From: Escherichia coli
GTDB lineage: Bacteria; Pseudomonadota; Gammaproteobacteria; Enterobacterales; Enterobacteriaceae
Reading direction: 5' to 3' (one strand)
Assembly: GCF_011045215.1 (NCBI RefSeq)
Contig: NZ_CP049201.1
DNA length: 64,000 nt
Positions 12,401 through 52,540 of this stretch are shown here, in pieces; within the stretch, counting starts at the first letter, position 1, and the number at the start of each line of letters is the position of its first letter. The notes below the pieces were generated by a model that ran no database searches, was not told the DNA's origin, and saw only the letters and a list, made by a program, of their open reading frames with translations. The position numbers and the translations under genes were made by a program.

Positions 12401-12452
12401 TATGATTGTGGTCCGCATTCGGTCATAAACGCACATAACATCATGATCTGTG

Positions 12453-12870
12453 TGGTTTTGTAGGCCGGATAAGGCGTTCACGCCGCATCCGGCGACAGGA
12501 GCCAAATGCCGGATGCAACGCTGGCGCGTTTTATCCGGCCTACAATGAGCTCAACATACTGATTTGTATGGTTTTGTAGGCCGGATAAGGCGTTCACGCC
12601 GCATCCGGCGACAGGAGCCAAATGCCGGATGCAACGCTGGCGCGTTTTATCCGGCCTACAATGAGCTCAACATACTGATTTGTATGGTTTTGTAGGCCGG
12701 ATAAGGCGTTCAAGCCGCATCCGGCGACAGGAGCCAAATGCCGGATGCAACGCTGGCGCGTTTTATCCGGCCTACAATGAGCTCAACATACTGATTTGTA
12801 TGGTTTTGTAGGCCGGATAAGGCGTTCAAGCCGCATCCGGCGACAGGAACCAAATGCCGGATGCGTCTCT
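12453..12870. repeat. Tandem BIME/REP array, about 3.6 copies of a 116-bp unit
   Basis: Unit beginning tggttttgtaggccggataaggcgttca(c/a)gccgcatccggcgacagga... recurs at 12453, 12569, 12685 and 12801 with near-perfect identity; each unit holds two inverted REP palindromes. Confidence 0.85.
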
Positions 12871-18989: not shown

Positions 18990-19940
18990 ATGCGTGTGTT
19001 ACTGGCACCGATGGAGGGTGTGCTTGATTCTCTGGTGCGTGAATTGCTGACCGAAGTTAACGACTACGATCTGTGCATCACCGAGTTCGTCCGCGTGGTG
19101 GATCAACTGCTGCCGGTAAAAGTCTTTCATCGCATTTGCCCTGAGTTACAAAACGCCAGCCGGACACCATCCGGTACGCTGGTGCGCGTTCAGTTGTTAG
19201 GTCAGTTCCCACAATGGCTGGCAGAGAACGCCGCCCGTGCGGTGGAGTTAGGTTCCTGGGGCGTGGGTCTCAATTGCGGCTGCCCGTCGAAAACGGTCAA
19301 CGGTAGCGGTGGTGGGGCGACGTTACTCAAAGATCCTGAACTCATCTACCAGGGGGCAAAAGCGATGCGTGAAGCTGTACCGGCGCATTTGCCCGTCAGC
19401 GTGAAAGTGCGTCTGGGCTGGGACAGCGGTGAGAAGAAATTTGAAATCGCCGATGCGGTTCAACAGGCTGGCGCTACGGAGCTGGTGGTGCATGGGCGGA
19501 CAAAAGAGCAGGGTTACCGCGCGGAGCATATTGACTGGCAGGCGATTGGCGAGATTCGCCAGCAGCTGAATATTCCGGTGATTGCCAACGGTGAAATCTG
19601 GGACTGGCAGAGTGCGCAACAATGCATGGCGATCAGCGGCTGCGACGCAGTGATGATTGGTCGCGGGGCGCTCAATATTCCCAACCTGAGCCGGGTAGTA
19701 AAATATAACGAACCGCGAATGCCGTGGCCGGAGGTGGTTGCTTTGCTGCAAAAATATACCCGTCTGGAAAAGCAGGGCGATACCGGGTTATATCACGTAG
19801 CGCGGATTAAACAGTGGTTGAGTTATTTGCGTAAAGAATACGATGAAGCAACGGAATTATTTCAGCATGTTCGGGTGTTGAATAATTCCCCTGATATTGC
19901 AAGGGCTATTCAGGCAATTGATATCGATAAGCTGCGATAA
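18990..19940 (+). CDS. dusC: tRNA-dihydrouridine(16) synthase
   Basis: Dus-family TIM-barrel flavoenzyme; internal start [11 protein letters not shown]... fits better than the track start at 18924. Confidence 0.85.
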
Positions 19941-20029
19941 TAGTGGAATCGCAGTTTATCAGAGACAATGAATCGCTTATTCAGCTTCATCATCTTGTTG
20001 CGCTCCTTTCATGAGCTAAGCCACATATT

Positions 20030-20240
20030 GCCACTGGCGCAAGGAGCGCGCAGGGGGAGGACAATCGCCTCCTCCCCCTGCACCCCCGGGCTCTGGCGAA
20101 CAAAATCGCCGCTGCGCGGTACCTTCAGCTTATCCCCTTCGGCTACCGGGTCGGGCGCGAGGAAACGTCCTTGTAAGACGCGCCCTCAGCCCACATCCAT
20201 GTGGGCTGCCCCGGCCTTCGGGGAACGCTTCAGCAATTTT
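20030..20240. repeat. GC-rich palindrome-dense intergenic element of unknown class
   Basis: Several perfect hairpins in about 210 bp: cagggggagga-caatcgcc-tcctccccctg, ggcgcg...cgcgcc, gcccaca-tcca-tgtgggc, cccg-gcctt-cggg. Confidence 0.4.
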
Positions 20241-20327
20241 GACGCCACCAACACCGGAGCTGTTTGCAAATCAAGTACACAAAATATCTAGTTCCTGACC
20301 TGACAACTTATATGTCATATCTGATTT

Positions 20328-20411
20328 TTAAAATATCATCTTAAATACGCCAGTCACCACCAGTAGCCCAATCAGGAAAATAATCAATACAGCCCAGAGT
20401 ATAATTTTCAT
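20328..20411 (-). CDS. yohP: 27-aa small hydrophobic membrane protein
   Basis: Reverse-strand ORF MKIILWAVLIIFLIGLLVVTGVFKMIF with SD aaggaa 7 nt upstream; matches my recollection of E. coli YohP. Below the ORF-track size cutoff. Confidence 0.55.
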   Translation of the reverse strand: MKIILWAVLIIFLIGLLVVTGVFKMIF

Positions 20412-20634
20412 TGGCGTTCCTTTATTTGTGAGTGCTGAATAAGTATAGGAAAAAACGAAGCCCTTTGCCGTTATCCATAAACGATTAAGATAAATCGGAA
20501 GATATCATTCGCTTAGTGTATATTTTTCTGGATATGTCGTTTTATTGCTACTGATGTATTGCCACGCGAAACTAAAAAATATATCGCAACACACGGTAAT
20601 CTCCGCGCACCTTTTCTTACCTGATTATTCCCCC

Positions 20635-22071
20635 ATGAATCGTGATTCCTTTTATCCAGCCATCGCCTGTTTTCCGCTGTTACTGATGCTGACCGGGTGT
20701 GCGCCTATGCATGAAACCCGCCAGGCGTTAAGCCAGCAAACGCCCGCTGCACAAGTTGATACCGCATTACCCACGGCGCTGAAAAATGGTTGGCCAGACA
20801 GCCAATGGTGGCTGGAGTATCACGATAATCAGCTCACTTCCTTAATTAACAATGCACTACAGAACGCACCGGATATGAAGGTGGCTGAACAGCGCATTCA
20901 GCTAGCTGAAGCCCAGGCGAAGGCAGTTGCTACTCAGGATGGTCCGCAGATCGACTTTTCTGCGGATATGGAGCGGCAAAAAATGTCGGCAGAAGGGCTA
21001 ATGGGGCCGTTTGCTCTGAACGATCCGGCCGCAGGTACGACCGGTCCGTGGTACACCAACGGAACTTTTGGCTTAACGGCGGGCTGGCATCTCGATATCT
21101 GGGGAAAGAATCGGGCGGAGGTTACTGCCCGCCTGGGTACGGTTAAAGCACGGGCGGCGGAACGCGAGCAAACCCGCCAATTGCTGGCTGGCAGCGTAGC
21201 CCGCCTGTACTGGGAGTGGCAAACCCAGGCGGCGTTAAACACGGTCTTGCGGCAAATCGAAAAAGAGCAGAACACCATTATCGCGACCGATCGCCAGCTA
21301 TATCAGAACGGGATTACTTCTTCAGTTGAAGGTGTGGAAACCGATATTAATGCCAGCAAAACCCGGCAGCAGCTCAACGATGTCGCGGGGAAAATGAAAA
21401 TTATTGAGGCACGGTTAAGCGCACTTACAAATCACCAGACAAAGTCATTGAAGCTTAAACCGGTCGCGTTGCCGAAAGTGGCAAGCCAGCTTCCTGATGA
21501 ACTGGGGTACTCCTTACTGGCCCGGCGGGCAGATTTGCAGGCGGCGCACTGGTACGTTGAGTCATCGCTAAGCACCATTGATGCGGCAAAAGCGGCATTT
21601 TATCCTGACATCAACCTGATGGCCTTTCTGCAACAGGATGCGTTGCACTTAAGCGATCTGTTCCGTCATTCCGCGCAGCAAATGGGTGTTACGGCAGGCC
21701 TGACGCTACCCATTTTCGATAGTGGTCGTCTTAACGCCAATCTCGATATCGCAAAAGCCGAAAGCAACTTGTCTATCGCCAGCTACAACAAAGCGGTGGT
21801 TGAAGCGGTAAATGACGTGGCGCGGGCGGCCAGCCAGGTTCAGACACTGGCGGAGAAAAACCAGCATCAGGCGCAAATTGAGCACGATGCCTTGCGTGTG
21901 GTAGGTCTTGCGCAGGCGCGCTTTAACGCGGGCATCATTGCTGGTTCCCGCGTCAGCGAAGCCAGAATCCCCGCGCTGCGTGAGCGGGCCAATGGCCTGT
22001 TATTGCAAGGGCAGTGGCTGGATGCCTCCATTCAACTCACTGGTGCGTTGGGCGGGGGTTACAAACGCTGA
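20635..22071 (+). CDS. mdtQ: Outer-membrane efflux factor lipoprotein (NodT/OprM family)
   Basis: Internal start MNRDSF... gives 478 aa with lipobox LLLMLTGC; OMF-like coiled-coil/barrel composition. Confidence 0.75.
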   Translation: MNRDSFYPAIACFPLLLMLTGCAPMHETRQALSQQTPAAQVDTALPTALKNGWPDSQWWLEYHDNQLTSLINNALQNAPDMKVAEQRIQLAEAQAKAVATQDGPQIDFSADMERQKMSAEGLMGPFALNDPAAGTTGPWYTNGTFGLTAGWHLDIWGKNRAEVTARLGTVKARAAEREQTRQLLAGSVARLYWEWQTQAALNTVLRQIEKEQNTIIATDRQLYQNGITSSVEGVETDINASKTRQQLNDVAGKMKIIEARLSALTNHQTKSLKLKPVALPKVASQLPDELGYSLLARRADLQAAHWYVESSLSTIDAAKAAFYPDINLMAFLQQDALHLSDLFRHSAQQMGVTAGLTLPIFDSGRLNANLDIAKAESNLSIASYNKAVVEAVNDVARAASQVQTLAEKNQHQAQIEHDALRVVGLAQARFNAGIIAGSRVSEARIPALRERANGLLLQGQWLDASIQLTGALGGGYKR

Positions 22072-22123
22072 TGATATGTGCCTTCTATACTTAACGTTTA
22101 TTCAGCGTTAAGTGGAGAACTCG

Positions 22124-22885
22124 ATGGCACAGGTCGCGATAATTACCGCCTCCGATTCGGGGATCGGCAAAGAGTGCGCGTTATTACTGGCGCAGCAGGG
22201 GTTTGATATTGGCATTACCTGGCACTCAGATGAAGAAGGGGCAAAAGATACCGCGCGTGAGGTAGTTAGCCACGGCGTACGTGCGGAGATCGTGCAGCTG
22301 GATCTCGGTAAACTGCCAGAAGGTGCGCAGGCGCTGGAGAAACTCATTCAACGGCTGGGGCGTATTGATGTGCTGGTGAATAATGCGGGCGCAATGACCA
22401 AAGCGCCGTTTCTTGATATGGCTTTCGATGAGTGGCGCAAGATTTTTACCGTTGATGTCGATGGTGCATTTTTATGCTCACAAATTGCGGCCCGCCAGAT
22501 GGTGAAACAAGGGCAGGGCGGTCGCATCATCAACATTACGTCGGTACATGAACATACGCCGCTGCCGGATGCCAGCGCCTACACAGCCGCTAAACATGCG
22601 CTCGGTGGGTTAACCAAAGCGATGGCGCTGGAGCTGGTCAGGCATAAGATTTTGGTGAACGCAGTCGCGCCTGGGGCGATCGCCACGCCAATGAATGGCA
22701 TGGATGACAGCGACGTGAAGCCCGACGCGGAGCCTTCGATTCCTCTGCGGCGTTTTGGTGCAACGCATGAGATTGCCAGCCTGGTAGCGTGGCTGTGCTC
22801 AGAGGGCGCAAATTACACCACCGGGCAGTCGTTGATAGTGGATGGCGGCTTTATGTTGGCGAATCCGCAGTTCAACCCAGAATAG
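22124..22885 (+). CDS. yohF: Short-chain dehydrogenase/reductase
   Basis: TASDSGIGK Rossmann motif and YTAAK catalytic motif. Confidence 0.8.
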   Translation: MAQVAIITASDSGIGKECALLLAQQGFDIGITWHSDEEGAKDTAREVVSHGVRAEIVQLDLGKLPEGAQALEKLIQRLGRIDVLVNNAGAMTKAPFLDMAFDEWRKIFTVDVDGAFLCSQIAARQMVKQGQGGRIINITSVHEHTPLPDASAYTAAKHALGGLTKAMALELVRHKILVNAVAPGAIATPMNGMDDSDVKPDAEPSIPLRRFGATHEIASLVAWLCSEGANYTTGQSLIVDGGFMLANPQFNPE

Positions 22886-22928
22886 CGCAGTGAGGTGCGT
22901 GGTTATTTCAATGGGTAAAATTTTGGTA

Positions 22929-23006
22929 GGCATGATAAGACGCACAAGCGTCGCATCAGGCATGGTGCCCCGGATGTCGGATGCGGCGCGAACGCCTTAT
23001 CCAGGG
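22929..23006. repeat. BIME (two REP palindromes)
   Basis: ggcatgataagacgcacaagcgtcgcatcaggcatg plus cggatgtcggatgcggcgcgaacgccttatccagg between convergent yohF and yohD. Confidence 0.6.
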
Positions 23007-23014
23007 CAATGGTT

Positions 23015-23593
23015 TTACGCCTGATTATCCGGCTTTTTCTTCCCGCGTCGTTTCAGCCACCAGCGCACGCCTACCACCAGAACCACGACCAGAATCAACC
23101 AGACCCAGTGCTTCAAATGCTGGTCGAGATTGTGCAACCACGGCGCAATCACCTGACCACCAGCGTAACCGATAGTGGTAAAAATCAACGCCCAGGCAAA
23201 TGCGCCGAGAATATTCAGTGGCAGAAAGATTTTCGGCGGCAGCAGGCTGGCACCAATCAGCGTCGGGCCAATCACCCGAAAGCCATACATAAAACGCGTA
23301 CCAATGACAAACAGATACGGATGGCGTTGGATAAGTTTCTGCGCCCGCTCAATTTTATCCTGATGTTTCGAGAAACGGCGTAACAGCTTGCCGCCAAACC
23401 GCCGTCCGCACAGATAGAGCACCTGGTCGCCAATCATGCCGCCAAGCGCCACAGAAAGTACCACCAGCGGGAACTTTAATAGCCCCTGATGCGCCGCAAC
23501 GCCTCCCAGCAAAGTCACGGTTTCACCTTCCGCCAGGCTACCGATCACCAGCGCGGCATAACCATATTGTGAGATGAGTGTATTGAGATCCAT
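23015..23593 (-). CDS. yohD: DedA-family inner-membrane protein
   Basis: Internal start MDLNTLISQYGYAALVIGSL... gives 192 aa; DedA-like. Confidence 0.75.
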   Translation of the reverse strand: MDLNTLISQYGYAALVIGSLAEGETVTLLGGVAAHQGLLKFPLVVLSVALGGMIGDQVLYLCGRRFGGKLLRRFSKHQDKIERAQKLIQRHPYLFVIGTRFMYGFRVIGPTLIGASLLPPKIFLPLNILGAFAWALIFTTIGYAGGQVIAPWLHNLDQHLKHWVWLILVVVLVVGVRWWLKRRGKKKPDNQA

Positions 23594-37750: not shown

Positions 37751-38212
37751 TTATTTCACTTCTTTAAAACCAGCGGCTTTCATCACCTGTTCCATTTGCG
37801 CCATAGTGATACCTTTTTTGGCATCTTCAGCAGAAACGTTGATTCCTGAAATACCCTGCAGGGCTTTAAAATCCACTTTTTCCATATCGATAGTCACGTT
37901 TTCCTGCGCGTAGGTATCGGTATAGGTTAATTTTTCTTCAACACCCGCGATGTTTTTGTATTTGGCGCTTAACGGCTCAAGTGTCTTGGCAGCATCTTCT
38001 TTGGTGGTAGCACCAATGGAGGCAAATTGAATTTTGGTTTCAGAAGATTGCTTAAGCACCTTGTCACCTTTGTAGACATAGGTAATGGCAATTTCAGTGC
38101 CGTTCAGATTGGCGCTGAATTTCTTCGATTCTTCTTTGTCACCGCAGCCAGCAAGAGAGAAAACCAGAACAGATGCAACAACAAGGGAAAACAGCTTATT
38201 GAAAGCCTTCAT
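37751..38212 (-). CDS. yehR: Lipoprotein (DUF1307)
   Basis: Signal peptide with lipobox LAGC; 153 aa from internal start MKAFNK.... Confidence 0.65.
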   Translation of the reverse strand: MKAFNKLFSLVVASVLVFSLAGCGDKEESKKFSANLNGTEIAITYVYKGDKVLKQSSETKIQFASIGATTKEDAAKTLEPLSAKYKNIAGVEEKLTYTDTYAQENVTIDMEKVDFKALQGISGINVSAEDAKKGITMAQMEQVMKAAGFKEVK

Positions 38213-38336
38213 GTAAAACTCCATTTTATTTAATCAAGGAACTGGTGACTCTCACCAGGGGCTATATAGGATATGCCTAATACCGTGGCGTGAGCAGTCC
38301 GGAACTGGAGTAGAACTCTTAGTAAAAAGCACTATT

Positions 38337-40340
38337 TCATCCTTGTTGCTGAAGCATGGGGAATAATTGTTCGCACAGCAAAACACCGTTATTCATTGCT
38401 TCTACCCGTGCCTCGCTTTCTGTATTACGAAATTGTCCCAACACATGTGCCAGCCGATAAAAACCCACCGCGGTGAGGTCATTCGCCAGCAACTCTGCCT
38501 GACCAATAGCACTCTGTTCCTGATAGCGCCAGCCGTTATGGAGCAGTTGAATAAGTAATGCCTGGCAGCGCATCAGCAACTGATGAGCAGTAGACGGCAC
38601 AGGCAGAACGCTGGCAGAAGGTAGTGATGCCACCACAGGCGCAGTTTCTGCGTCCAGCGCCCAGGCACGAGTCTTTGTCATCATTACCTGTGGTTCCAGT
38701 GTCAATTGCCCATCAACAAAACTGACAAAGCCAGAAACCAGACACACGGGGTCGTCTGTTTGTTGCAAAAGCGCCGCCATGCGTTCAACGGCATAAGGCG
38801 CGCTGGCTGAGGCTGGCAGTGATAACGTCAGCAGATTATCTTCACCTTCGCCGCTGATTACCTGCGCATCCAGCGTTTGGCGGCTGCTATCCCAACCGAG
38901 TGAAATACACTCAGCGACCGGCAGAATAAATAAGTTATCGACCTGATTAAGAGGCCGTATGCAGGCGGGGGGACGCTGGCGTAAATATTCCCGCAAAGCC
39001 ACAATGCCCGGCTGGCGCAACGGCGCGCTCAACATTTGCCAGGCATCTGGCGACAGTGGAACAACACTACTCAAGCGGTTACGGGTCGCGAACAGCAGTT
39101 CGCCTTCGGCACTGCGACGCGCTGCTTGTGAAACAATTTGTCCACCTGCCAGTGCGCCAGCCTGAAAACTAAACAGCCGACGTTTTGCCGCGGGAGCGTT
39201 TTCTTGTTCGCTTCTCGGCCAACTACGCGAAAGATGCAAAATACTGCCGGTGTCGGGATCGGTAAACCAGATGCGTAAACCATAATGCTTAATATCCTGC
39301 CAGCAACGCATACCTAAAGACACCAGCCGCAGATGATCAAGCTTTGCTTCTCCGGCAATGCCAGAGCCAACGCCCGTGCGCCACGGCACAGGAGGAACTT
39401 CACCAACACTGTCGCGCCGGGCCATCTCTTGTGCGCAATTTAATCGACTGTTTAATGCCGCAAGCTGACGTAAGCATTCTCCGGCATGATAGTGGCTGGC
39501 GCGAGTGTGGAAGGCATCAACGCTTGCCCGTAGCTGTCGTAGTGATTCACTCACCCATCGCCAGTTGCAGCGTTCCGCCGCCTGCTGTGCGCGGCTGAAA
39601 GCGGCCTCGTAATGGATTGGCGGCTGGCTGATGCCGCCCAGCCATAATGCCTGACTTAATTGCTGAACATATTGACGACATGTTTTGCCTTCTTCGCTGG
39701 CAAACGGATCGTCAGATGATGTGACGTGTTCGCTGCGCATCTGCCAGATTAAATGAGTAAATTCCGCTTGCTGAGTTTTGGCCTCGACGAAGGCCTGCAC
39801 AGCCAGTACGACATGTTCGCAAAGTGTGCCTTCAATACAATCACAGCGGGCGAAGCGAATGCTGCTGCGGGAATAAAAACGCACATCACTCATCGGTAAG
39901 CGGGCTGAGGGAATTTTGCCAGGCGCACAGAACAACTCAATGGTGATGCCTTTAGCGACCAGCGCCTGTGCGCGTTTGCGGGTGGCATCGGGAAGGGTAG
40001 CCAGTTCTTCCAGCCAGATTGCCGGATCCCATTCCTCTTCTTTTCCCGTAGGCTGGGCGGTAGCACAAAGTCGTTGATAACTTAACACCAGCATCACGCG
40101 ATGACGGCACATGCCGCTGGCCCCGCAGCTGCACTGAGCCTCTTTCAGTGCCTGGCCGTTCGCCAGCTGGGTACGGACACCGTCACTGAAGGTGGCGATT
40201 AAAGCGCCGTTCTCATGGCTGATCTCCGGGACGTTGCCATTTTCCAGTTCCTTAAGACTGCGCTTAACAAAACCGGCATTGCTTAACGCTGTCAGGGCCT
40301 GCGGTGTCAGTTCTAATAATTCCGGACGTAGTGAATTCAT
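38337..40340 (-). CDS. yehQ: SWIM zinc-finger protein, last gene of the yehLMPQ module
   Basis: Two CxC-x(n)-CxH SWIM-type motifs (CSCGASGMCRHRV and CDCIEGTLCEHVV) near the N-terminus. The start is uncertain: ATG 40340 makes an ATGA overlap with the yehP stop, ATG 40364 is the alternative. Confidence 0.7.
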   Translation of the reverse strand: MNSLRPELLELTPQALTALSNAGFVKRSLKELENGNVPEISHENGALIATFSDGVRTQLANGQALKEAQCSCGASGMCRHRVMLVLSYQRLCATAQPTGKEEEWDPAIWLEELATLPDATRKRAQALVAKGITIELFCAPGKIPSARLPMSDVRFYSRSSIRFARCDCIEGTLCEHVVLAVQAFVEAKTQQAEFTHLIWQMRSEHVTSSDDPFASEEGKTCRQYVQQLSQALWLGGISQPPIHYEAAFSRAQQAAERCNWRWVSESLRQLRASVDAFHTRASHYHAGECLRQLAALNSRLNCAQEMARRDSVGEVPPVPWRTGVGSGIAGEAKLDHLRLVSLGMRCWQDIKHYGLRIWFTDPDTGSILHLSRSWPRSEQENAPAAKRRLFSFQAGALAGGQIVSQAARRSAEGELLFATRNRLSSVVPLSPDAWQMLSAPLRQPGIVALREYLRQRPPACIRPLNQVDNLFILPVAECISLGWDSSRQTLDAQVISGEGEDNLLTLSLPASASAPYAVERMAALLQQTDDPVCLVSGFVSFVDGQLTLEPQVMMTKTRAWALDAETAPVVASLPSASVLPVPSTAHQLLMRCQALLIQLLHNGWRYQEQSAIGQAELLANDLTAVGFYRLAHVLGQFRNTESEARVEAMNNGVLLCEQLFPMLQQQG

Positions 40341-41473
40341 GACTGAAGATTCTCCGCAAGCCATGATGCCAGCTCGCCCGGTGTCATGGCGGCTATTTGT
40401 GCGCCGACATTTACCAGCGCCTGGGCCGTATCGTGGTCATAGCAAGGCGTTGCTGTGCTATCGAGCGCTGCCAGTCCCAGCACTTTGATGCCGCTCTGGA
40501 CACACTTTTTCACCTGATGCGTCAGTAATGATGATGAACCCCCTTCGTAAAAATCGCTCACGAGGATAATGACGCTTTTCGCTGGTTGTTCAATAAGTTG
40601 CCGACCATATTCCACGGCACTGGCGATATTGGTTCCGCCGCCTAATTGCACTTTCATTAATAACTCTACCGGATCGGCAACGTCTGCCGTGAGATCAACC
40701 ACGCTGGTGTCAAACGCCACCAGATGGGTACGAATGCCGGGTAACTGCCATAAACAGGCCGCCATCACCGCAGAGTGGATCACCGAATCGACCATCGAGC
40801 CGCTTTGATCAACCAGTAAGACCAGTTGCCATTGTTCGCTTTGGCGTTTAATGCGGCTGTTAAAGCGGGGGGATTCGATATACAACTTGCCGTGTTGCGG
40901 GTGCCAGTGTTGCAGGTTGGCGCGCAGAGTACTTTTGAAATCAAAGTTTCGCGCCAGTGGAATAAATGAGCGGCGACGGCGATCGCGGACACCAGAAAAA
41001 GCCTGACGAACTTCCTTTGCCAGTCGAGCCATAATTTCTTCAACAACCTGGCGCACTATCCGGCGGGCGGCAGCCAGTACTTCGGGATTCATCAGATGTT
41101 TGGTGTGCAAAACGGCGCGTAGCAGGCTTTCAGAAGGCTGCATACGTTCCAGCACGTCGAGATTCGTCACCACATCTTCAATGCCATAGCGCAGTACGGC
41201 ATCGCTTTCCAGCCGCTCAATCACCTGTTGCGGAAACAGCGTGTGAATACTGTTGATCCACTCAGGGGTGGTGAGATTTGAGCCACCTAATCCACCGGAG
41301 CGTTCACCACGCTGGAGCCGTTCAGGATCGCGCCCATACAGCCACTCCAGCGCGTGGTCTACCTGCCGGGCATTGTCATCCAGCCCACAAAGGGTCGTTT
41401 CTGCCGCTTCGCCAAGAATTAATCGCCAGCGTTGTAGCTCACGGGTAGTCAGAAGATCGTTCAGTTCAGACAT
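40337..41473 (-). CDS. yehP: von Willebrand factor A (VWA) domain protein
   Basis: MIDAS-type motif LVLLVDQSGSM...T...D and a VWA-like fold signature; internal start MSELNDLL gives 378 aa and an 8-nt overlap with the yehM stop. Confidence 0.7.
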   Translation of the reverse strand: MSELNDLLTTRELQRWRLILGEAAETTLCGLDDNARQVDHALEWLYGRDPERLQRGERSGGLGGSNLTTPEWINSIHTLFPQQVIERLESDAVLRYGIEDVVTNLDVLERMQPSESLLRAVLHTKHLMNPEVLAAARRIVRQVVEEIMARLAKEVRQAFSGVRDRRRRSFIPLARNFDFKSTLRANLQHWHPQHGKLYIESPRFNSRIKRQSEQWQLVLLVDQSGSMVDSVIHSAVMAACLWQLPGIRTHLVAFDTSVVDLTADVADPVELLMKVQLGGGTNIASAVEYGRQLIEQPAKSVIILVSDFYEGGSSSLLTHQVKKCVQSGIKVLGLAALDSTATPCYDHDTAQALVNVGAQIAAMTPGELASWLAENLQS

Positions 41474-43745
41474 GGAAAACTCCCCAGTGTTGCAGCGATG
41501 CCAGTGCCTGCTGTTCGAGTTGTTGATGATGTGCAATGGCTTGCGGAGGATAATGCAACGGCATTTGCAGCGCTGAAACAGGAAGCTGCGCAAGCTGGTA
41601 ATGCTCAAGCACCTGATGCGCCAGTGTCCCGCGTTCTCGTGGCGGTAGCCAGGCCATCGCCGCGCGCAAATCGGGCAAGGCGTTAATAAAATCGTCGTCA
41701 CTCAGTTGATTTAAATGACTACTGAAACCGGCGATAAATGCTGGTTGGCAGGCCAATTGATGACGGGCGAGCGCCAGCAAACCGTGCAGCGCCTCGCCGG
41801 ATTGTGCCGGGGATAACTGCGCCAGCATCGTCAGCGCCGCTTCGGCACTGGCGTTGGGATGTTCCAGACGCATCAGTGCGCCAAGAGCCGCGCCGCGATC
41901 CAGCGCCGGGACATGAATCGCCTGACTGCGGCGCTCCAGTAAGGCTACCGCCGCAGAAAGAAAAACGCCGGGTAAATTAACGCCGCTATGTAGATCGCGC
42001 AGGATATGGCAAAGCGCCTGCCAGCTATGCATGTGAGCGTGAAACTCCTTTTCATCTGGTCTGCCGTTAGATTCACACAGCCACAGCGTGCGATCGATAG
42101 CCGCGCATAACGTCGTTTGTAATATCTGCGCGCCTTGCATACCGCTAATTTCATCCAGCCGCCATAAGGCATATAGCACTTCCAGCGCCTGGCCCATTTC
42201 GGCAAATTGATTTTCCTGGGCGATTAATAATGTGAGTTGCTCCAGTAATTGCTCACTAAAGCTCGCCAGGCCCGCTAACGCCGCCTGGCTTAGACATGCG
42301 GTAATGCTGCCGATTCCACCCGCGTCCAGCATATCGGCTTCTAATTTATTGCGTGCGGCTTCCTGGAGCGTGGCACCAAAGCAGGCGGCCTCAATTAATG
42401 CCGCATGCTGGCTAAGCGGCTGGGTTAATTTCCACTGTTCTTCACCGTTACCCGCAAGCGTCAGTGTACTTCCGTGCTGGCGCACAATGCCGGGAATCTC
42501 CAGTATTGCCAGCCGATGTAACACCTGACTTTGCGCTAGTCCATTGGGGTTAAAGCGATTTAAGGTAAGCTCCACCGGAAGAGAGATTGCGGTACGTTCC
42601 AGTTCGCAGGTGACATCTTTTGGCAGAGGCGGTTGTGGCGTAGAAGGGGCAAGTTTACCGAATCCGTCACCCGCTAATGTGTCTATCAACGTTAGCAGAA
42701 TCGGATCGGTGTCGGGATGAATAACTCCGCGATAGCTCCACGGCAACGGCGCGTTCAGGGCTTCTTTAATCAGCGAGCCTGCTATGGCATCCAGCCAGTC
42801 AGTGCGTAACGGTAGTTTATGTCCGCGCAACTGTGCCAGCGCCATCGCATGCAGATGAGCGGCAGCCATATCCGCGGTCGAAGCAGGCAAGTGGTGTTGG
42901 CGCAAACGGGTAAGAACCGTTTTTAGCAGTTGTTCTCCCGCCTGCTGTAAGCCCCACTGCCAGCACCAGCTTTGCCAGACCGGGGCAGGCATTCCTGAAA
43001 GGTATCCTGCCAGCACATCAAGGCGCTTTTCACTGTAGGGTGTGAGATAACAACCTGTAACGGCATCTGCCAGCGAGGGCAATTCTGGCTTGTTAATGTC
43101 CTGCGGGCATTCGCGCCACATTTTTGCCAGTGCCGGAGCGTGCCAGCCACCGCAGACGACTAACACGTCGCCATTATTTTGCTGCACCGCCCATGCAATC
43201 CAGCGAGCCATAAAGGCTTCGCGCTGACGATTGAGTGCATCGCCGGGGAAATCGCCCCGCAGTTGGGCAAAATAGTGCGCCAGTGCAGAGGGTAATGCAG
43301 TTTGCTGGCTTTCATCTTCGAACAAGTGATCCCACAGGGTATCGCTGTTATCCATGCGGGAGGCACGCAGCAGCAAGGTCTGGCTTTCCTCTTGCGTTTC
43401 AGGCGAATCGTCCTCTTCTTCACTCTGTGCCCAGCAAGGCAAATCGATGAAGTAAGTTTGTGCCTGAATACGACGAGCGGCTTGTAGCGCCTGCCACTCC
43501 GGCGAAAATTCAGCAAATGGCGTCCAGGCACCACGCCCGGGGGCTGCACCGTCCTGATACTGGCAATAACTGTAAATAGCTACCGGAAGCTGGTGGGCTA
43601 AAAACAGTTCGTCTACCCGGTCATTAAAATCAGCCGGGCCTTCAATCAACACGTATCGTGGCCGCTGGCTTTCGATTAACGATTTCACCAGCCGGGCGCA
43701 GGCCGGACTATGATGCCGGATGCCGACAATTAACGGCTCGCTCAT
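41466..43745 (-). CDS. yehM: Large (759 aa) protein of unknown function in the MoxR-VWA module
   Basis: Internal start MSEPLIVGIRHH... sits 10 nt after the yehL stop; no domain recognisable by eye. Confidence 0.7.
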   Translation of the reverse strand: MSEPLIVGIRHHSPACARLVKSLIESQRPRYVLIEGPADFNDRVDELFLAHQLPVAIYSYCQYQDGAAPGRGAWTPFAEFSPEWQALQAARRIQAQTYFIDLPCWAQSEEEDDSPETQEESQTLLLRASRMDNSDTLWDHLFEDESQQTALPSALAHYFAQLRGDFPGDALNRQREAFMARWIAWAVQQNNGDVLVVCGGWHAPALAKMWRECPQDINKPELPSLADAVTGCYLTPYSEKRLDVLAGYLSGMPAPVWQSWCWQWGLQQAGEQLLKTVLTRLRQHHLPASTADMAAAHLHAMALAQLRGHKLPLRTDWLDAIAGSLIKEALNAPLPWSYRGVIHPDTDPILLTLIDTLAGDGFGKLAPSTPQPPLPKDVTCELERTAISLPVELTLNRFNPNGLAQSQVLHRLAILEIPGIVRQHGSTLTLAGNGEEQWKLTQPLSQHAALIEAACFGATLQEAARNKLEADMLDAGGIGSITACLSQAALAGLASFSEQLLEQLTLLIAQENQFAEMGQALEVLYALWRLDEISGMQGAQILQTTLCAAIDRTLWLCESNGRPDEKEFHAHMHSWQALCHILRDLHSGVNLPGVFLSAAVALLERRSQAIHVPALDRGAALGALMRLEHPNASAEAALTMLAQLSPAQSGEALHGLLALARHQLACQPAFIAGFSSHLNQLSDDDFINALPDLRAAMAWLPPRERGTLAHQVLEHYQLAQLPVSALQMPLHYPPQAIAHHQQLEQQALASLQHWGVFHV

Positions 43746-43755
43746 GCATCTTTCC

Positions 43756-44844
43756 TCACGGCAGGCGGTGGCGGGCTTGATAATAAGCCTGCCAGTGAGC
43801 TTCTTTATGTGTGGCGACACGCTGTTCGAAGTAACGGCGCAGACGAGCGCGATCTTCTTCGTTATCTTTGACGATGGTTCCGGCAATACAGTCCACCAGG
43901 TCGGCAGGCTCCCCCGCGCGATTCGCTAAAAACCAGGCGCGGACGCCCACGGCGTGGGCCACGTTCACGGCTTCAGCGGTGGACATAATCGCTGTTAGTG
44001 TATCCATTGACGTTTTCTTTTCGCCGTTGGCACGCAGATCGCGGAAGGTGCGGACCAGTAACTCCAGTACCGCGTCAGGCACTTTATGCGGAATACCGCT
44101 ATGGGCCAGCAAACGCGCCGAAGCACTGGCGACAAGCTCCAGCTCTTGGGCGAAATCCATAATCGGAAAGACAGTTTCAAAATCGAAGCGACGCTTTAGC
44201 GCAGCACTCATTTCATTGACGCCGCGATCGCGGGTATTGGCAGTGGCAATAATATTAAAGCCTTCTCGCGCATAGAGCTGACTGGCTTCACCAGTGAGTT
44301 CCGGCACCGTCATCACCCTGTCAGAAAGCATACCTAACAGACAGTCTTGCACTTCCAGCGGTGTACGCGTTATCTCTTCAAAACGGACGATTTTGCCGTC
44401 GCGCATTCCCTGGTAAAGCGGGGCAGGGACCAGCGCTTCCGTTGATGGACCATGATTGATAAGCAGGGCGTAGTTCCAGCCGTACTTGATTTGATCTTCG
44501 GTAGTAGATGCGCCGCCCTGGATGGTTAACCCGGCATCGCCGCTAATAGAGGTTGCCAGTAATTCAGACAGGAGAGATTTTGCGGTGCCAGGTTCCCCCA
44601 CCAACATCAAACCGCGTCCGGTGGCAAGAGTGACTAACATACGTTCGACAGCGGAGGGACTAATCACCACTTTACGGCTAATATTTTGCGCGCTATCGCC
44701 AAGGATAAAAGCACGGGCCGCAGGCAAACTTAACTGCCAACCGGGCGGGCAAGGTGCGTTATCATTTTGTTTTAATTTTGCCAGTTCATCGGCGTATAAC
44801 ACAGCAGCAGGCGGACGCTGCAGATGATTATTCTGCGGTGACAT
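43756..44844 (-). CDS. yehL: MoxR-like AAA+ ATPase
   Basis: Walker A GEPGTAKS is encoded at 44575..44598 (read directly from the DNA); Walker B-like and sensor regions follow; internal start MSPQNNH... preceded by an SD gives 362 aa. Confidence 0.8.
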   Translation of the reverse strand: MSPQNNHLQRPPAAVLYADELAKLKQNDNAPCPPGWQLSLPAARAFILGDSAQNISRKVVISPSAVERMLVTLATGRGLMLVGEPGTAKSLLSELLATSISGDAGLTIQGGASTTEDQIKYGWNYALLINHGPSTEALVPAPLYQGMRDGKIVRFEEITRTPLEVQDCLLGMLSDRVMTVPELTGEASQLYAREGFNIIATANTRDRGVNEMSAALKRRFDFETVFPIMDFAQELELVASASARLLAHSGIPHKVPDAVLELLVRTFRDLRANGEKKTSMDTLTAIMSTAEAVNVAHAVGVRAWFLANRAGEPADLVDCIAGTIVKDNEEDRARLRRYFEQRVATHKEAHWQAYYQARHRLP

Positions 44845-44952
44845 ATATTCATCCCTGAAATGTATTAATGAAATAAACGATATTTTACGCGCAATAAATG
44901 TTTGGCGCATTAGTTGTTTGAGCGAAAAATATCTGGAAAGCAGATTACAGTA

Positions 44953-44990
44953 AATAAAAAAACCTGCTGGTGAGGCAGGTTCTTTTATTT
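44953..44990. terminator. Bidirectional rho-independent terminator in the yehK-yehL intergenic region
   Basis: 7-bp stem aacctgc/gcaggtt flanked by an A run upstream and a T run downstream, so it gives a U tract on either strand. Confidence 0.5.
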
Positions 44991-45276
44991 ACTATTTTCA
45001 GGCCTAACACCACAGCCTGTGCAACATCGTGTTCCAACGAACGAATTATAACCACGGCTGGACCCCGTTGCAATTAAGATAATGAGATTTATAATCCAGA
45101 CCGTTGGGACGTTGCGCCGGATCGAACCTATTTCAAGTCCTGGCTACCGGACGGGTGGTGCTGCAGGTGGTGCCCTGATCCGGAGTGCAACATCGTGGTC
45201 CAACATACGTAAACCAGTATCGACAGGCAGTGTAAGGGTAAGGTGCTGGTGTTGCGCTCCTTAATAAGGAGAGCGG

Positions 45277-45366
45277 ATGGACTCGCTGACACAAAAGTTA
45301 ACCGTGCTCATTGCTGTACTGGAGCTATTAGTAGCTCTGTTACGTTTGATTGATTTGTTGAAGTAA
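45277..45366 (+). CDS. Unannotated 29-codon hydrophobic/amphipathic peptide ORF (candidate small toxin-like membrane peptide)
   Basis: ATG preceded by SD aaggag (5 nt spacing); MDSLTQKLTVLIAVLELLVALLRLIDLLK; putative promoter ttgcaa-N16-tataat at 45068..45095; hairpin aaggggga-N7-tccccctt at 45389..45411. Confidence 0.35.
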   Translation: MDSLTQKLTVLIAVLELLVALLRLIDLLK

Positions 45367-45475
45367 CGGGCAAATTGAAACGCATCTAAGGGGGAAAACC
45401 GCTTCCCCCTTTAATAAAGCTATACTCGTCATACTTCAAGTTGCATGTGCTGCGACTTGAATTATCTAGAGTATA

Positions 45476-45793
45476 TTATTCTATTTCTTGGTTGAATATA
45501 TTCTGTAGTTCACGATTAAAAATTGCTATTACAGTTTCAGGTGATTCACCTCGTAATTTCCGCTCATCAATACACTCATCTCTTATATAAATCAACGCAT
45601 CATTTATTAGCGGGTCAGCATCTTCTCGATCACGTTGATGAAATGTTGGATGTAGCCGGAATCGCTCCAGTCGATAGACGGAACCTGTAAATAATTCAGA
45701 GCATTTATGGATCTCAAGTCTGAAGGAAAACGGATCTTCAGGTACAGGGACCTCATAATCGTAAATAGCAACCAGCTCTTTTTGCACGATCAT
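45476..45793 (-). CDS. yehK: Small acidic protein of unknown function
   Basis: 105 aa ORF 60 bp downstream of yehI on the same strand. Confidence 0.6.
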   Translation of the reverse strand: MIVQKELVAIYDYEVPVPEDPFSFRLEIHKCSELFTGSVYRLERFRLHPTFHQRDREDADPLINDALIYIRDECIDERKLRGESPETVIAIFNRELQNIFNQEIE

Positions 45794-45853
45794 CGCTTTC
45801 CCCGCTGGTAAGTCGTGTTGATAACGGGCAGTTGCATCACTGCCCGCTGTGTT

Positions 45854-48800
45854 TTAATGGAAAATGACGTCAGCTGCGCTTAACGCCTCACTCAAATCAA
45901 ACACATCGAGTTCGGCAAAAGTGACGGATTTATTGTTACGGTAAACCCGAAGAGAATGGAAGCTCATCAGCGCTTTGCTATCAGCACTGTAGTGGTTAAA
46001 ACCGGGTGAAAACTTAAGGACCAGCCGGTACTCACCCAGGTCATAGACAAATGCGTCCTCATAGCCTGACTCCCAGCCTTTGTATCGCATTCCCATAAGT
46101 TGCCCAACGGTAGCGGATTTACCTTCCCAGCGAGTCAGGCTGTTACTGGTTGACTCGTCAGGTGTGAGCAGCACCGTGCGGCGCGACAACTGGCGAAAAG
46201 GCGGCATAATTTCGTAATCGGCAAAAAGCTGTGCAAATTCACTGCGCATTTCTACTGTCATTTCTAACGGGTGGGCAATGCCAATCAGAGCGTCCGCAGG
46301 CAGGTCAATTGGCTCATCTTGCGCATTGCAGAACTCCCCCTCTGCGGCCACACGAAAGGCGTTGAGTAAACAACGCGGTTCATTTGCCGGATAAACCCCC
46401 CATATTAATCGCTGGGTAACCAGACGGGTAAAGGGATGATTAACAAACAGAGAATGAAAATCTGCCAGCGACCAGCGTCGGGTGGTACGTAGGGCCGTTT
46501 CAAGACGCGGGAGCAGGTTTTTGCTCACCTGAGTGGCATCTTTTTTTAGCCCTTTTAGTTGGGCCAGTGCCTCGGGCGCTTTCAGTTGATCGTCATCGGC
46601 GCGCAACCGGGGAACGCTTTTCTGGCGAACGTTTTGCTGATCAAAGATAATCGGGTTGAGGTTTTCATCGAAGCGAACGGTAAACTGCCGGGGACCAAAA
46701 TCAAAAATCAACGCCTGCGGATCATCAAGGCCAAGGGTTGGGACTAATCTGTCCGCTAGCTCTTCCTGGCTTAGCCCGCGATTTTCTGCGACCACCTGAA
46801 GAAATTCCGCCGCGTTATCACGTAAGGGGCGGGATTTAGCCCGTTGCGATATATGATGCAGCTGTATCAGCGCCATATCATTATTCATCAGGGTAAGGAT
46901 GTTCAGGCCGCTGACAGCACGGGCAGATTTGCCTTCTTGTGGCCAGGCGAGGATCTGTGTCGTCAGATCCCGTGCCGTGCTTTCGTCACCAAAGAGACTT
47001 AACGCCAGAAATGCCCAGTTGTCTTTTGCGGGGGCACCAGCTTGTTGCCACGCAGTGAAGAGATCCCAGGCAAAAGCTGCCAGCGTTTGTGGCTGGCAGA
47101 ACGTTTTCAGTTGTTCCAGCCCGCTATAAAAACGTCCCCCCTGGGTAAAGCGCAGCATTTCGCCGAAAATTTCCAGAGCGTCATCGGTAACAGTTTGATT
47201 ATTAGTGATAAGGCGCGGCCTGGACCACATTTGCGGATGCCAGAAATCAGGGGCTTTTGGAATGCGTGCCGGGTAAATCTCTATTGGACTCTGTTTAAGT
47301 AATTGTTCCAGGGCAGGCCATAGATCTGTACGCTGCCAACGATTGGCTAAAGTTTGTAGCAATTCGCCATGCCCATGTTCGTAAAGTAAACGCAGGGCAA
47401 GTAATGCAGCTTCGCTTTTATCGCTGGATTTGGTGAAGACAAGAGGGATAAGTGCAGTAGCCGTATGTTCCGGCCAATGTAAAATCCACTGGCGAGCCAG
47501 ATTACGCTGGCCCGCAAAACGGTGCCAGACGCGGGCAATGGGCAGGGCCAGTTCTGTTGCGCCGAAATTTAAAATTAACGGAAATGTTTCTTTTGGACGA
47601 TGTGAAAAAGCCAACAGCAGACCTGGTAGCGCATCCAATCCGAGGATACTGAGAAAATAGTCCTCACCCGCGAACAGATGCTTTTTCTCATTGATACGCA
47701 GCCAGAAGGTCAAAGCTATCTCACGCGGCAACTGTGCCAATAAATACAGGTTCCAGACACTCTTTTCCGGACGATAACGTGAGTAGTTGTCATTTTCCCA
47801 TATGTTAATTAACGCTTCTACGTGACCACTGCGAAGCGCCTGTTCTGCTAATGGTGCTTCCGGGGAGTTCCAGCCATTCAGGATCTCTTCAACCCGCCCC
47901 TGGTAGTAATGCCACTCAACAATGAGTGAATTGCGTGCAGCATCCAGTTTTCCGGGGAGTATATAATTCAAAAACAGCCATACATCATCCCCAAAACCCA
48001 GTTCCTGTAATACAACTCGCCCACTTTTTTGTTCCATGCGTTCCGCAAGAGATTCCGTGCTGAAATAACGGGCAGGCTCAGTGGCGGCAAGCCTCTCTCG
48101 TTCGCCTGGTTGCCAGTAAACTTGCGGAGTTAATTCGAGCCGTGCCAAATCAAGACGTGGAGCTGTCATTTTTTTCTTACTACGCCACGGTGGTGAAACG
48201 AGGATTTCAGGCAGATTGCTGTTATCGGTGCCATCAATAACCGGTTTTGGCAGTGCCGATAAATAACTCTTCAGCACTGCCCTGGCTTGAGTACTTAACC
48301 ACGGCATCACTTCTGCTGCCAGTTGTGGCTGCGATGCCATCAGCGTTTGTAACAGCGTACGCCAGTATTCATCGCGTGCTTTTTGCTGTGCAGGCAGCTT
48401 TTTGTCTTCGATGATTGGATAACCAGGGCGGGCTGGTGGTTCTGTTAACGCCAGCAGTTCTGCCAGTGCGGCGAGCGTCGCATGGGGGAAGTTTTTATGG
48501 TATTTAGCTACACGTTGCAGGCTGGGTTTGTTTTTATCAGCCACCAGTAGCAAGGTGCGGATGACTTGCGGATGGTTAATTTGTACCAGCAGACTGCCGC
48601 AATCTTCTTTATAGGCATACATCGCGAGGCGCGGAATGGCTGCCAGTCCTTGTTCGCGCAAAAGGGCGGCGCAGGCCGCGTAGCCGAAGTGGTTTTCATG
48701 CGACATGTAGCTGGCTTCTCGATCGCTAAATATATCCTGGCTCCAGTAGTGTTCGAGTTTTCTCACCGCTGTGGGGTCATTAGCTACAACTTTTAACCAC

Positions 48801-49486
48801 TCCTTAGAATGAAAATGAGTTCGCGGGCATTCAAGGCCTACCAACTCATTGGCTATTTCTGGTTTTTCCGGGAGGATCAGCGCAATAAAAGGGCGGCGAA
48901 CTTTGGTTATTCCTGGTAGTGCGGCAATGAGTTTGTCGGCGCAACGCTGCCAGCAGCTTTCCTCTGCCAGAGAGAGGTGTTTACGCAGTCGGAGATCGAA
49001 TTCGTTATAGGTTTCTGAGCGATAACCATAGCCATAGTCCTCGTTCTGATACTGCAATGTGACTACCAGAGGATCACTCTCATAACACCGTGCAATAAAC
49101 TGGCGTGCAATCACCACCTCAGTCGCATATTCCAGCCCCTCTTGTTGGACGATTTCGTCGAGCAACTGTTGGCTGTCATTTTGCGCGATACAGGCTAGCG
49201 CCGCCATTGTCCGGGCCGGGATTGAGGGTTTGTGTTCGCCGATCAAGTTGATGGCCTGCGTGATGGCGGACTGCCACTCCAGTGAAAAATTTTCATAACG
49301 CCAGACAATGTTTTTTTTCTTCTCAGCTTTTTGTAGCAATTCATCACCCAGTGTCTGAATGATGCTTTCAGTGATAACAGGCACTGGTTCGCCCGGCCAA
49401 TTGCGATGGCTGAGTGGTGTTTTACCCTTTTTATATTTCAGTTCCAGTTGGGCGTTATCAGCCAGCCACGGTAATTCCTTGTCCAT
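45854..49486 (-). CDS. yehI: Giant DUF4132-family protein (MolR paralog lacking the N-terminal WGR segment)
   Basis: 1210 aa; C-terminal ~450 aa aligns by eye with the C-termini of the two upstream paralogs. Confidence 0.8.
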   Translation of the reverse strand: MDKELPWLADNAQLELKYKKGKTPLSHRNWPGEPVPVITESIIQTLGDELLQKAEKKKNIVWRYENFSLEWQSAITQAINLIGEHKPSIPARTMAALACIAQNDSQQLLDEIVQQEGLEYATEVVIARQFIARCYESDPLVVTLQYQNEDYGYGYRSETYNEFDLRLRKHLSLAEESCWQRCADKLIAALPGITKVRRPFIALILPEKPEIANELVGLECPRTHFHSKEWLKVVANDPTAVRKLEHYWSQDIFSDREASYMSHENHFGYAACAALLREQGLAAIPRLAMYAYKEDCGSLLVQINHPQVIRTLLLVADKNKPSLQRVAKYHKNFPHATLAALAELLALTEPPARPGYPIIEDKKLPAQQKARDEYWRTLLQTLMASQPQLAAEVMPWLSTQARAVLKSYLSALPKPVIDGTDNSNLPEILVSPPWRSKKKMTAPRLDLARLELTPQVYWQPGERERLAATEPARYFSTESLAERMEQKSGRVVLQELGFGDDVWLFLNYILPGKLDAARNSLIVEWHYYQGRVEEILNGWNSPEAPLAEQALRSGHVEALINIWENDNYSRYRPEKSVWNLYLLAQLPREIALTFWLRINEKKHLFAGEDYFLSILGLDALPGLLLAFSHRPKETFPLILNFGATELALPIARVWHRFAGQRNLARQWILHWPEHTATALIPLVFTKSSDKSEAALLALRLLYEHGHGELLQTLANRWQRTDLWPALEQLLKQSPIEIYPARIPKAPDFWHPQMWSRPRLITNNQTVTDDALEIFGEMLRFTQGGRFYSGLEQLKTFCQPQTLAAFAWDLFTAWQQAGAPAKDNWAFLALSLFGDESTARDLTTQILAWPQEGKSARAVSGLNILTLMNNDMALIQLHHISQRAKSRPLRDNAAEFLQVVAENRGLSQEELADRLVPTLGLDDPQALIFDFGPRQFTVRFDENLNPIIFDQQNVRQKSVPRLRADDDQLKAPEALAQLKGLKKDATQVSKNLLPRLETALRTTRRWSLADFHSLFVNHPFTRLVTQRLIWGVYPANEPRCLLNAFRVAAEGEFCNAQDEPIDLPADALIGIAHPLEMTVEMRSEFAQLFADYEIMPPFRQLSRRTVLLTPDESTSNSLTRWEGKSATVGQLMGMRYKGWESGYEDAFVYDLGEYRLVLKFSPGFNHYSADSKALMSFHSLRVYRNNKSVTFAELDVFDLSEALSAADVIFH

Positions 49487-49495
49487 GCTCTTTCC

Positions 49496-52400: not shown

Positions 52401-52528
52401 GCAAAGCTTTTTACCTGACTTTGCCCGTTGGTACCGACTTTACCCCAGTTAATATGCAGCTCGTTTCCCTGCTGCTCCACCGCCCAGAATTTATGTGATT
52501 TTTCGTCCTGATAAATATAGGTTTTCAT
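49496..52528 (-). CDS. WGR-domain / DUF4132 protein, middle MolR-family paralog
   Basis: 1010 aa; N-terminal 65 aa nearly identical to the upstream paralog; C-terminal half ~70% identical to it; central part AT-rich and divergent. Confidence 0.75.
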   Translation of the reverse strand: MKTYIYQDEKSHKFWAVEQQGNELHINWGKVGTNGQSQVKSFADTAAAEKAALKLIAEKVKKGYVEQVDANAHSHDASAKKVLVTEEKASINRQAATNGLPWLADNDPIILPPNIARHALSHRLWPGEPVKKPTKPEKQNLISRLANRTYHYYKNLTFDYSSCSDEWADAISQAISLIKAQKTKIPARTMAVLTFLEICFCQGWNDETSSELLDEIVSTFGIEYATETVIFWWQIDFDFDYKDEHLTFFINYADSSKDSYRRNNDKFSLRLRKHLSLAEEEVWQNCIAKLLVALPDISLYRQPLIAILMPEIPEVAHEIVHRLHQVADVPQLEMLKLVATDPFTLEILENYQYIDVFNTYGASWSATVLREQGIAALARLAPYAEEDNCGDVLKCINHPLAITALIEAADTNKRCYERLIKSAENFPSATIAALAEALVKKDDKRKHTLLVSLLNANPLLVEKLVIGLSSQAVNLLQQCQQLLNSRNEDFANSEILPMVLVSPPWETQNKNNDNSPVGKYPAKIPPLPLFYQPPLWTRPKLKNSSKVLPDSALQHLGEMLRFPQEEALYPGLLQVKDACTADSLAEFAWDLFTAWLTAGAPSKESWAFTALGVLGNDDTARKLTPLIRAWPGESQHKRATVGLDILAAIGSDIALMQLNGIAQKLKFKALQERAKEKIADIAESRELTVAELEDRLAPDLGLDDNGSLLLDFGSRQFTVSFDETLKPFVRDVSGSRLKDLPKPNKSDDESQANDAVNRYKLLKKDARTVAAQQVARLESAMCLRRRWSPENFQLFLVEHPLVRHLTRRLIWGVYSAENQLQACFRVAEDNSYSTADDDLFTLPEGDISIGIPHVLEISPTDAAAFGQLFADYELLPPFRQLDRNSYALTEAERNASELTRWAGRKCPSGRVMGLANKGWIKGEPQDGGWIGWMIKPLGRWSLIMEIDEGFAVGMSPAELSAEQLLSKLWLWEGKAESYGWGSNSTQEALFSVLDAITASELINDIEALFE

Positions 52529-52540
52529 TGTTAAATCCTT

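Follow-up and report, generated by a model that had tools for sequence, protein, structure and literature searches.

Intact mdtQ as the probable ancestral state in Escherichia coli, with a recent, lineage-confined loss in K-12

The state of MdtQ (YohG) in E. coli is known to be divided, the gene being intact in O157:H7, in B strains and in most isolates, and a pseudogene in K-12. The stretch of 64,000 nucleotides of E. coli DNA analysed here (contig NZ_CP049201.1, hereafter the window) carries an uninterrupted copy, which raises three connected questions: whether the product is a complete outer-membrane factor, which kind of pump it would serve, and whether the intact copy sets this strain apart or K-12 is the exception.

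The gene and its signal peptide lie as follows.

20635..22071, + strand: mdtQ (yohG) CDS, 478 aa plus stop, NodT-family outer-membrane-factor lipoprotein.
20635..20700, + strand: lipoprotein signal peptide, codons 1-22, lipobox L-T-G-C with Cys22 at 20698-20700.

The reading frame runs from an ATG at 20635 to a TGA ending at 22071 (1437 nt), and its 478 codons hold zero internal stops. There is an alternative in-frame TTG at 20545 that would give a longer ORF; the ATG appears the better start, as RefSeq annotations of syntenic genes use it and the MdtQ family model NF008524 aligns from residue 1. The N-terminus, MNRDSFYPAIACFPLLLMLTGC, matches a PROSITE-type lipobox pattern, applied as a regular expression, at LMLTGC, with Arg3 in the n-region, a hydrophobic core and Cys22, the last being invariant across an alignment of 62 homologous sequences. 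The +2 residue is Ala, which is consistent with a predicted sorting to the outer membrane. An earlier note on this DNA had claimed an uninterrupted ORF with a lipoprotein signal at exactly these positions, and both its description and its coordinates are confirmed by the above.

HMM profiling places the protein in the MdtQ family. The NCBIfam MdtQ equivalog model NF008524 gives 1021.2 bits, against a curated cut-off of 650, and aligns end to end (residues 1-478, model positions 1-478 of 478); the more general NodT outer-membrane-factor model TIGR01845 gives 274.1 bits (cut-off 210.05) over model positions 4-460 of 460. Pfam OEP (PF02321) is found twice, as tandem repeats (E 4.6e-30). The NCBIfam runner-up is MdtP with 355 bits, followed by CusC (99) and TolC (53). 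MdtP (YjcP, encoded in the ytcA-mdtNOP operon) is hence the closest E. coli paralogue family, both being NodT-type lipoproteins, but the score against its model NF007390, 354.8 bits over residues 17-477, stays under the cut-off of 597 and makes the window protein a paralogue and not a member; the TolC score (model TIGR01844) is far under its cut-off of 225. The strain has the standard E. coli outer-membrane-factor set of four, namely TolC, CusC, MdtP and MdtQ.

Within the MdtQ family, the window protein shares 97% identity with the best-matching database cluster and lies 3-10 residues away from the copies of nine non-K-12 E. coli genomes sampled across the identity range (FG92-1, BLR(DE3), PapRG-06-3, O55:H7 CB9615, 100416, EC45, AR_0058, WP7-S18-ESBL-09 and AR435), with corresponding gene order, lipobox and length. 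It differs from the E. coli form in that the lipobox reads LTGC and not LAGC, a variant also present in three of the nine, FG92-1 among them.

Among solved structures, VceC of Vibrio cholerae comes closest in sequence (PDB 1YC9, E 1.5e-39, query residues 51-477), and OprM, CmeC, SilC, CusC, OprN, MtrE and OprJ rank after it. An AlphaFold2 model built from the 62 homologs has a mean pLDDT of 85.7 and a pTM of 0.80, with strands at 105-116, 139-153, 325-336 and 348-357 and long helical hairpins whose helices reach up to 73 residues. Foldseek relates this model with probability 1.00 to VceC, OprN, CmeC, CusC, OprM, MtrE and TolC, the TM values being about 0.75-0.86 for VceC, OprN, CusC and OprM. 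VceC, a channel-tunnel protomer, is the best solved relative by fold too (TM 0.75/0.86, rmsd 3.9 Å), although MdtQ is only 25% identical to it. With TolC of E. coli, MdtQ shares the presumed duct role and, by prediction, a homologous fold (Foldseek E about 1e-14, TM about 0.68), whereas the identity drops to about 12-13% and TolC is not lipidated; TolC is the main duct for those E. coli pumps with a known outer-membrane partner. The modelled protomer would thus have the TolC-like fold, that is four beta-strands, long alpha-helical hairpins and an equatorial domain. Full-length matches to NF008524 and TIGR01845 together with the predicted fold indicate that the ORF is not cut short when compared with functional outer-membrane factors.

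Judging from these homologs, MdtQ would be lipidated at its N-terminus, and three protomers would form an outer-membrane beta-barrel continued by a long periplasmic alpha-helical tunnel. The tunnel would dock onto a periplasmic adaptor and an inner-membrane transporter, substrates then leaving the cell through MdtQ. Trimer formation, outer-membrane location, efflux role and partner class are what we infer from the related proteins. Concerning the partner, the first place to look for it is the neighbourhood of the gene, which includes the following.

20328..20411, - strand: yohP, 27-aa small membrane protein, divergent from mdtQ (syntenic annotation and direct reading).
22124..22885, + strand: yohF, SDR oxidoreductase, 52 nt downstream of mdtQ (ORF and RefSeq syntenic annotation).

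The gene order dusC, yohP, mdtQ, yohF, yohD, yohC, pbpG makes the window collinear with both FG92-1 and K-12. The syntenic regions of these two genomes, which together cover nearly the whole window, have no gene annotated as an adaptor or pump, and the lone window stretch with no counterpart in either carries DUF4132 genes. This is a difference from MdtP, as no adaptor or transporter gene adjoins mdtQ. With neither encoded nearby, MdtQ must be the channel of a pump whose genes lie at another place in the genome. Salmonella and Citrobacter have mdtQ in the corresponding chromosomal position, likewise with no pump genes adjoining, so the orphan status is older than the split of these genera. In Citrobacter the gene upstream of mdtQ differs and yohF is absent; an adh_short gene also lies 3' of a 59%-identical mdtQ homolog, and in the window yohF is possibly co-transcribed with mdtQ.

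More distant relatives give a hint of the partner. Of the nearest ones drawn from a search of 1.84 billion cluster representatives, the four on contigs long enough to show their gene context are the following.

P0127, 42% identity to MdtQ: ytcA, AaeA-like adaptor, FUSC, OMF.
P0129, 37% identity to MdtQ: ytcA, AaeA-like adaptor, FUSC, OMF.
P0125, 41% identity to MdtQ: FUSC, OMF.
P0131, 39% identity to MdtQ: MFS, OMF, EmrA-like adaptor.

The contigs of P0121, P0125 and P0126 span just 2-3.5 kb, and their operon context is partial or none. The nearest operon-linked relatives match the layout of the E. coli MdtP operon, ytcA-mdtNOP. From these operons, and from MdtP being the next-best model, we infer as the MdtQ partner an adaptor of AaeA/MdtN/EmrA type with a FUSC (aromatic-acid-exporter) or MFS transporter, and not an RND pump. 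VceC is the outer-membrane factor of the VceCAB pump of V. cholerae, which we take to be of the MFS (EmrAB) type; vceC presumably shares an operon with the genes for the adaptor and the transporter. The gene context of the relatives narrows the candidates and does not settle the identity of the pump.

A more specific proposal may be considered at this point. AaeAB is tabulated as 'AaeAB-?', its outer-membrane component unknown, in a 2021 Chem Rev article (PMC8277102). In natural E. coli, MdtQ could be the missing duct of a pump lacking an identified exit channel, likeliest this FUSC-type AaeAB, in which case the frameshift private to K-12 would have hidden the pairing from the decades of genetics done in that strain, and a conserved 11-mer upstream of mdtQ (described below) would be the induction site; we put this forward as a speculation that is improbable as a whole. 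The E. coli work on AaeAB was reportedly done in K-12, and if that work used a host without MdtQ, then MdtQ is not strictly required for AaeAB.

The same gene contexts bear on what is exported. MdtQ may be a duct for something other than drugs, be it in type I secretion or in the export of a metabolite or siderophore, and the 'multidrug resistance' label would then be misleading. Outer-membrane factors are common to efflux pumps and type I secretion systems (PMC8277102), and the phenotypes reported for yohG/mdtQ are slight, consisting of greater sensitivity to puromycin, acriflavine and tetraphenylarsonium (PMC11762307, PMC9241588). The nearest operon-linked relatives adjoin FUSC/ArAE-type exporters, and AaeAB, the known E. 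coli member of that class, exports the aromatic acid p-hydroxybenzoate and not antibiotics (PMC8277102). Such a role would leave the channel mechanism unchanged and would refine rather than contradict the reading of the locus as an intact outer-membrane factor. NodT-type lipoprotein factors are typically efflux components and not type I secretion ducts, which counts against it, and we consider a non-drug duct rather unlikely.

Returning to MdtQ as a working outer-membrane factor, it has to be asked whether the gene is in use. An intact frame could also belong to a cryptic gene, that is a silent, unexpressed relic with no working partner that is decaying as it did in K-12. The absence of adjoining pump genes in E. 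coli, Salmonella and Citrobacter fits such a relic, and so do the expression signals: a consensus scan for sigma-70 promoters and terminators over 19900-23100 returned fewer promoter-like sites than shuffled sequence, none of them well placed for mdtQ, and no obvious Shine-Dalgarno sequence is seen within 20 nt 5' of the ATG. The loss of the gene is also tolerated. K-12, which is without MdtQ, is not known to have a major efflux defect. Truncated mdtQ is a recurrent finding among certain isolates of Salmonella Typhi and Paratyphi A (PMC9241588). Taken together, the two suggest that the function is dispensable in some settings, and that function has been described as not elucidated (PMC11762307).

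The pattern of substitution, however, is unexpected for a relic. By the Nei-Gojobori method, dN/dS against Salmonella and Citrobacter amounts to 0.05-0.07, at saturating synonymous divergence and with the length kept at 478-479 aa, and among E. coli alleles to 0.05-0.16, values that speak for strong purifying selection. The substitutions that set the window protein apart, Q82K, Q206R and R417H, none of which is present in the nine sampled E. coli, do not touch conserved positions, as 0 of 3 fall at invariant or near-invariant columns of the homolog alignment, and H417 is the residue state of Salmonella and Citrobacter MdtQ. Retention is nearly complete as well, the 1.9-kb mdtQ region being present at a coverage of at least 80% in 5,407 of 5,426 complete E. 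coli genomes. A further point against a silent gene is the conservation across genera of an upstream element.

20555..20577, + strand: upstream block TGTATTGCCAC...ACTAAAA, 58-80 nt 5' of the mdtQ ATG, conserved.

Its 11-mer TGTATTGCCAC (20555-20565) is invariant, 77-80 nt 5' of the ATG, in E. coli, Salmonella, Citrobacter and one metagenomic contig that encodes a 59%-identical protein, while the remaining intergenic DNA diverges among the compared loci. The block is a candidate promoter -35 element (TTGCCA) or operator. We also considered a MarA/SoxS/Rob marbox within it, and the match by eye (about 10 of 14 specified positions) was too weak for any claim. On these grounds the silent relic is very improbable. 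The suggestion of the earlier note that the strain retains a functional outer-membrane factor for an unknown pump is supported by the full-length HMM matches, the predicted fold and the purifying selection.

In an Rfam scan of 19900-22200 the mdtQ leader found no match; the sole hit was a sub-threshold TwoAYGGAY (E 0.49) inside a TRIP1-type repeat. This repeat, at 19980-20251 between dusC and yohP, aligns to K-12 MG1655 at 89% identity, though inverted relative to its flanks, with the orientation in FG92-1 equal to that in the window. The same position is TRIP1c in the TRIP1 paper (PMC10888264). A 107-aa ORF at 19968-20291 within the repeat is spurious.

With MdtQ read as an intact and selected outer-membrane factor, it remains to locate what happened in K-12. 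The RefSeq records of K-12 HMS174 and MG1655, which are base-identical across mdtQ, give the gene as a 1436-nt pseudogene labelled 'frameshifted'. A four-way alignment of the window, K-12, FG92-1 and the B strain BLR(DE3) locates the lesion, as it contains a single indel, GCTGAAAATGG in K-12 against GCTGAAAAATGG (A5) in the other three, at the following position.

20782..20786, + strand: A5 homopolymer (codons K50/N51), A4 in K-12, -1 frameshift.

The deletion of one A from this run changes the frame and brings a stop at codon 70. The window gene is free of this K-12-type lesion, the A5 being kept at codons 50/51. When the missing A is restored, the K-12 sequence encodes exactly the BLR protein and is one synonymous site apart from the BLR gene, hence the loss of the A is recent. 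The earlier note had taken the K-12 gene for a pseudogene, and the annotation and the alignment agree with it, K-12 not being equally intact. A sequencing or annotation artefact that would leave K-12 as intact as the window can be rejected practically with certainty. A degree of noise in assembly is suggested by one MG1655 assembly used, in which btsS and yehI are given as frameshifted too, but A4 occurs in identical form in 355 independent assemblies, with laboratory-strain names or sources for all 60 of those listed, and MG1655 and HMS174 agree over the gene, whose in-frame translation stops at codon 70.

The distribution of the two alleles was obtained with short probes. Among 5,410 complete genomes of the species, those 355 contain an exact match to a 70-nt K-12 probe spanning the lesion (A4), and most of the matches listed are named K-12 derivatives. 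The 71-nt A5 version of the window is found exactly in 4,599 of 5,411. All nine of the sampled non-K-12 genomes have an intact mdtQ of 478 codons that carries a protein accession and is not flagged as a pseudogene. Beyond the species, full-length MdtQ protein clusters comprise thousands of members, from E. coli, E. albertii, Salmonella (81-82% identity) and Citrobacter (80-82%).

Intact mdtQ is therefore ancestral and near-universal in E. coli, K-12 being the exception. We conclude with high confidence that the locus is the intact, ancestral mdtQ (yohG) allele, encoding a NodT/OprM-type outer-membrane factor, and that the K-12 pseudogene is a recent loss confined to that lineage. The distinctiveness that the earlier note implied for the intact copy is not borne out by these counts. 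Intact mdtQ outside K-12 is also already documented and not new, a 2025 review giving the gene as conserved in the E. coli core genome although annotated as a pseudogene (PMC11762307). It should be noted that K-12 is the atypical genotype here, and a correct annotation is nearly all that the finding adds. As K-12 carries the frameshift, neither the function of MdtQ nor its partner can be studied in that strain unless the A5 run is repaired.

Several other features of the window deserve a mention. A second gene that is intact in the window and broken in K-12 is found at 38337-40364 (- strand), an uninterrupted ORF of 675 aa with a SWIM zinc finger, yehQ-like; in the K-12 MG1655 record yehQ is a pseudogene with an internal stop. 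At 45854-56350 (- strand) three intact DUF4132 genes follow one another in tandem, encoding 1210, 1010 and 1269 aa, and the second and third have an N-terminal WGR domain as well, where K-12 has yehI and a molR pseudogene only. The segment 50888-56154 has no K-12 counterpart except for a 203-bp match at 52327-52529, so that in K-12 molR seems to be the product of a deletion in, or a fusion of, two paralogues.

Over the 1.9 kb of the mdtQ region, no genome is closer to the window than FG92-1. Over a larger stretch of 23 kb (15400-38400) the best identity among the 5,426 complete RefSeq E. coli genomes is just 98.9%, hence the lineage of the source strain has no close relative in that collection. 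Positions 37939-38777 of FG92-1 L004 correspond to about 38422-56271 of the window, about 18 kb from yehQ to molR being missing in FG92-1, and an IS1 copy at the FG92-1 junction suggests an IS1-mediated deletion in that genome. Finally, a tandem array with REP-like GCCGGATAAGGCG palindromes at 12437-12864, between mglC and preA, repeats a 116-bp unit 3.7 times at 98% identity; the copy number seems to be lower in FG92-1.
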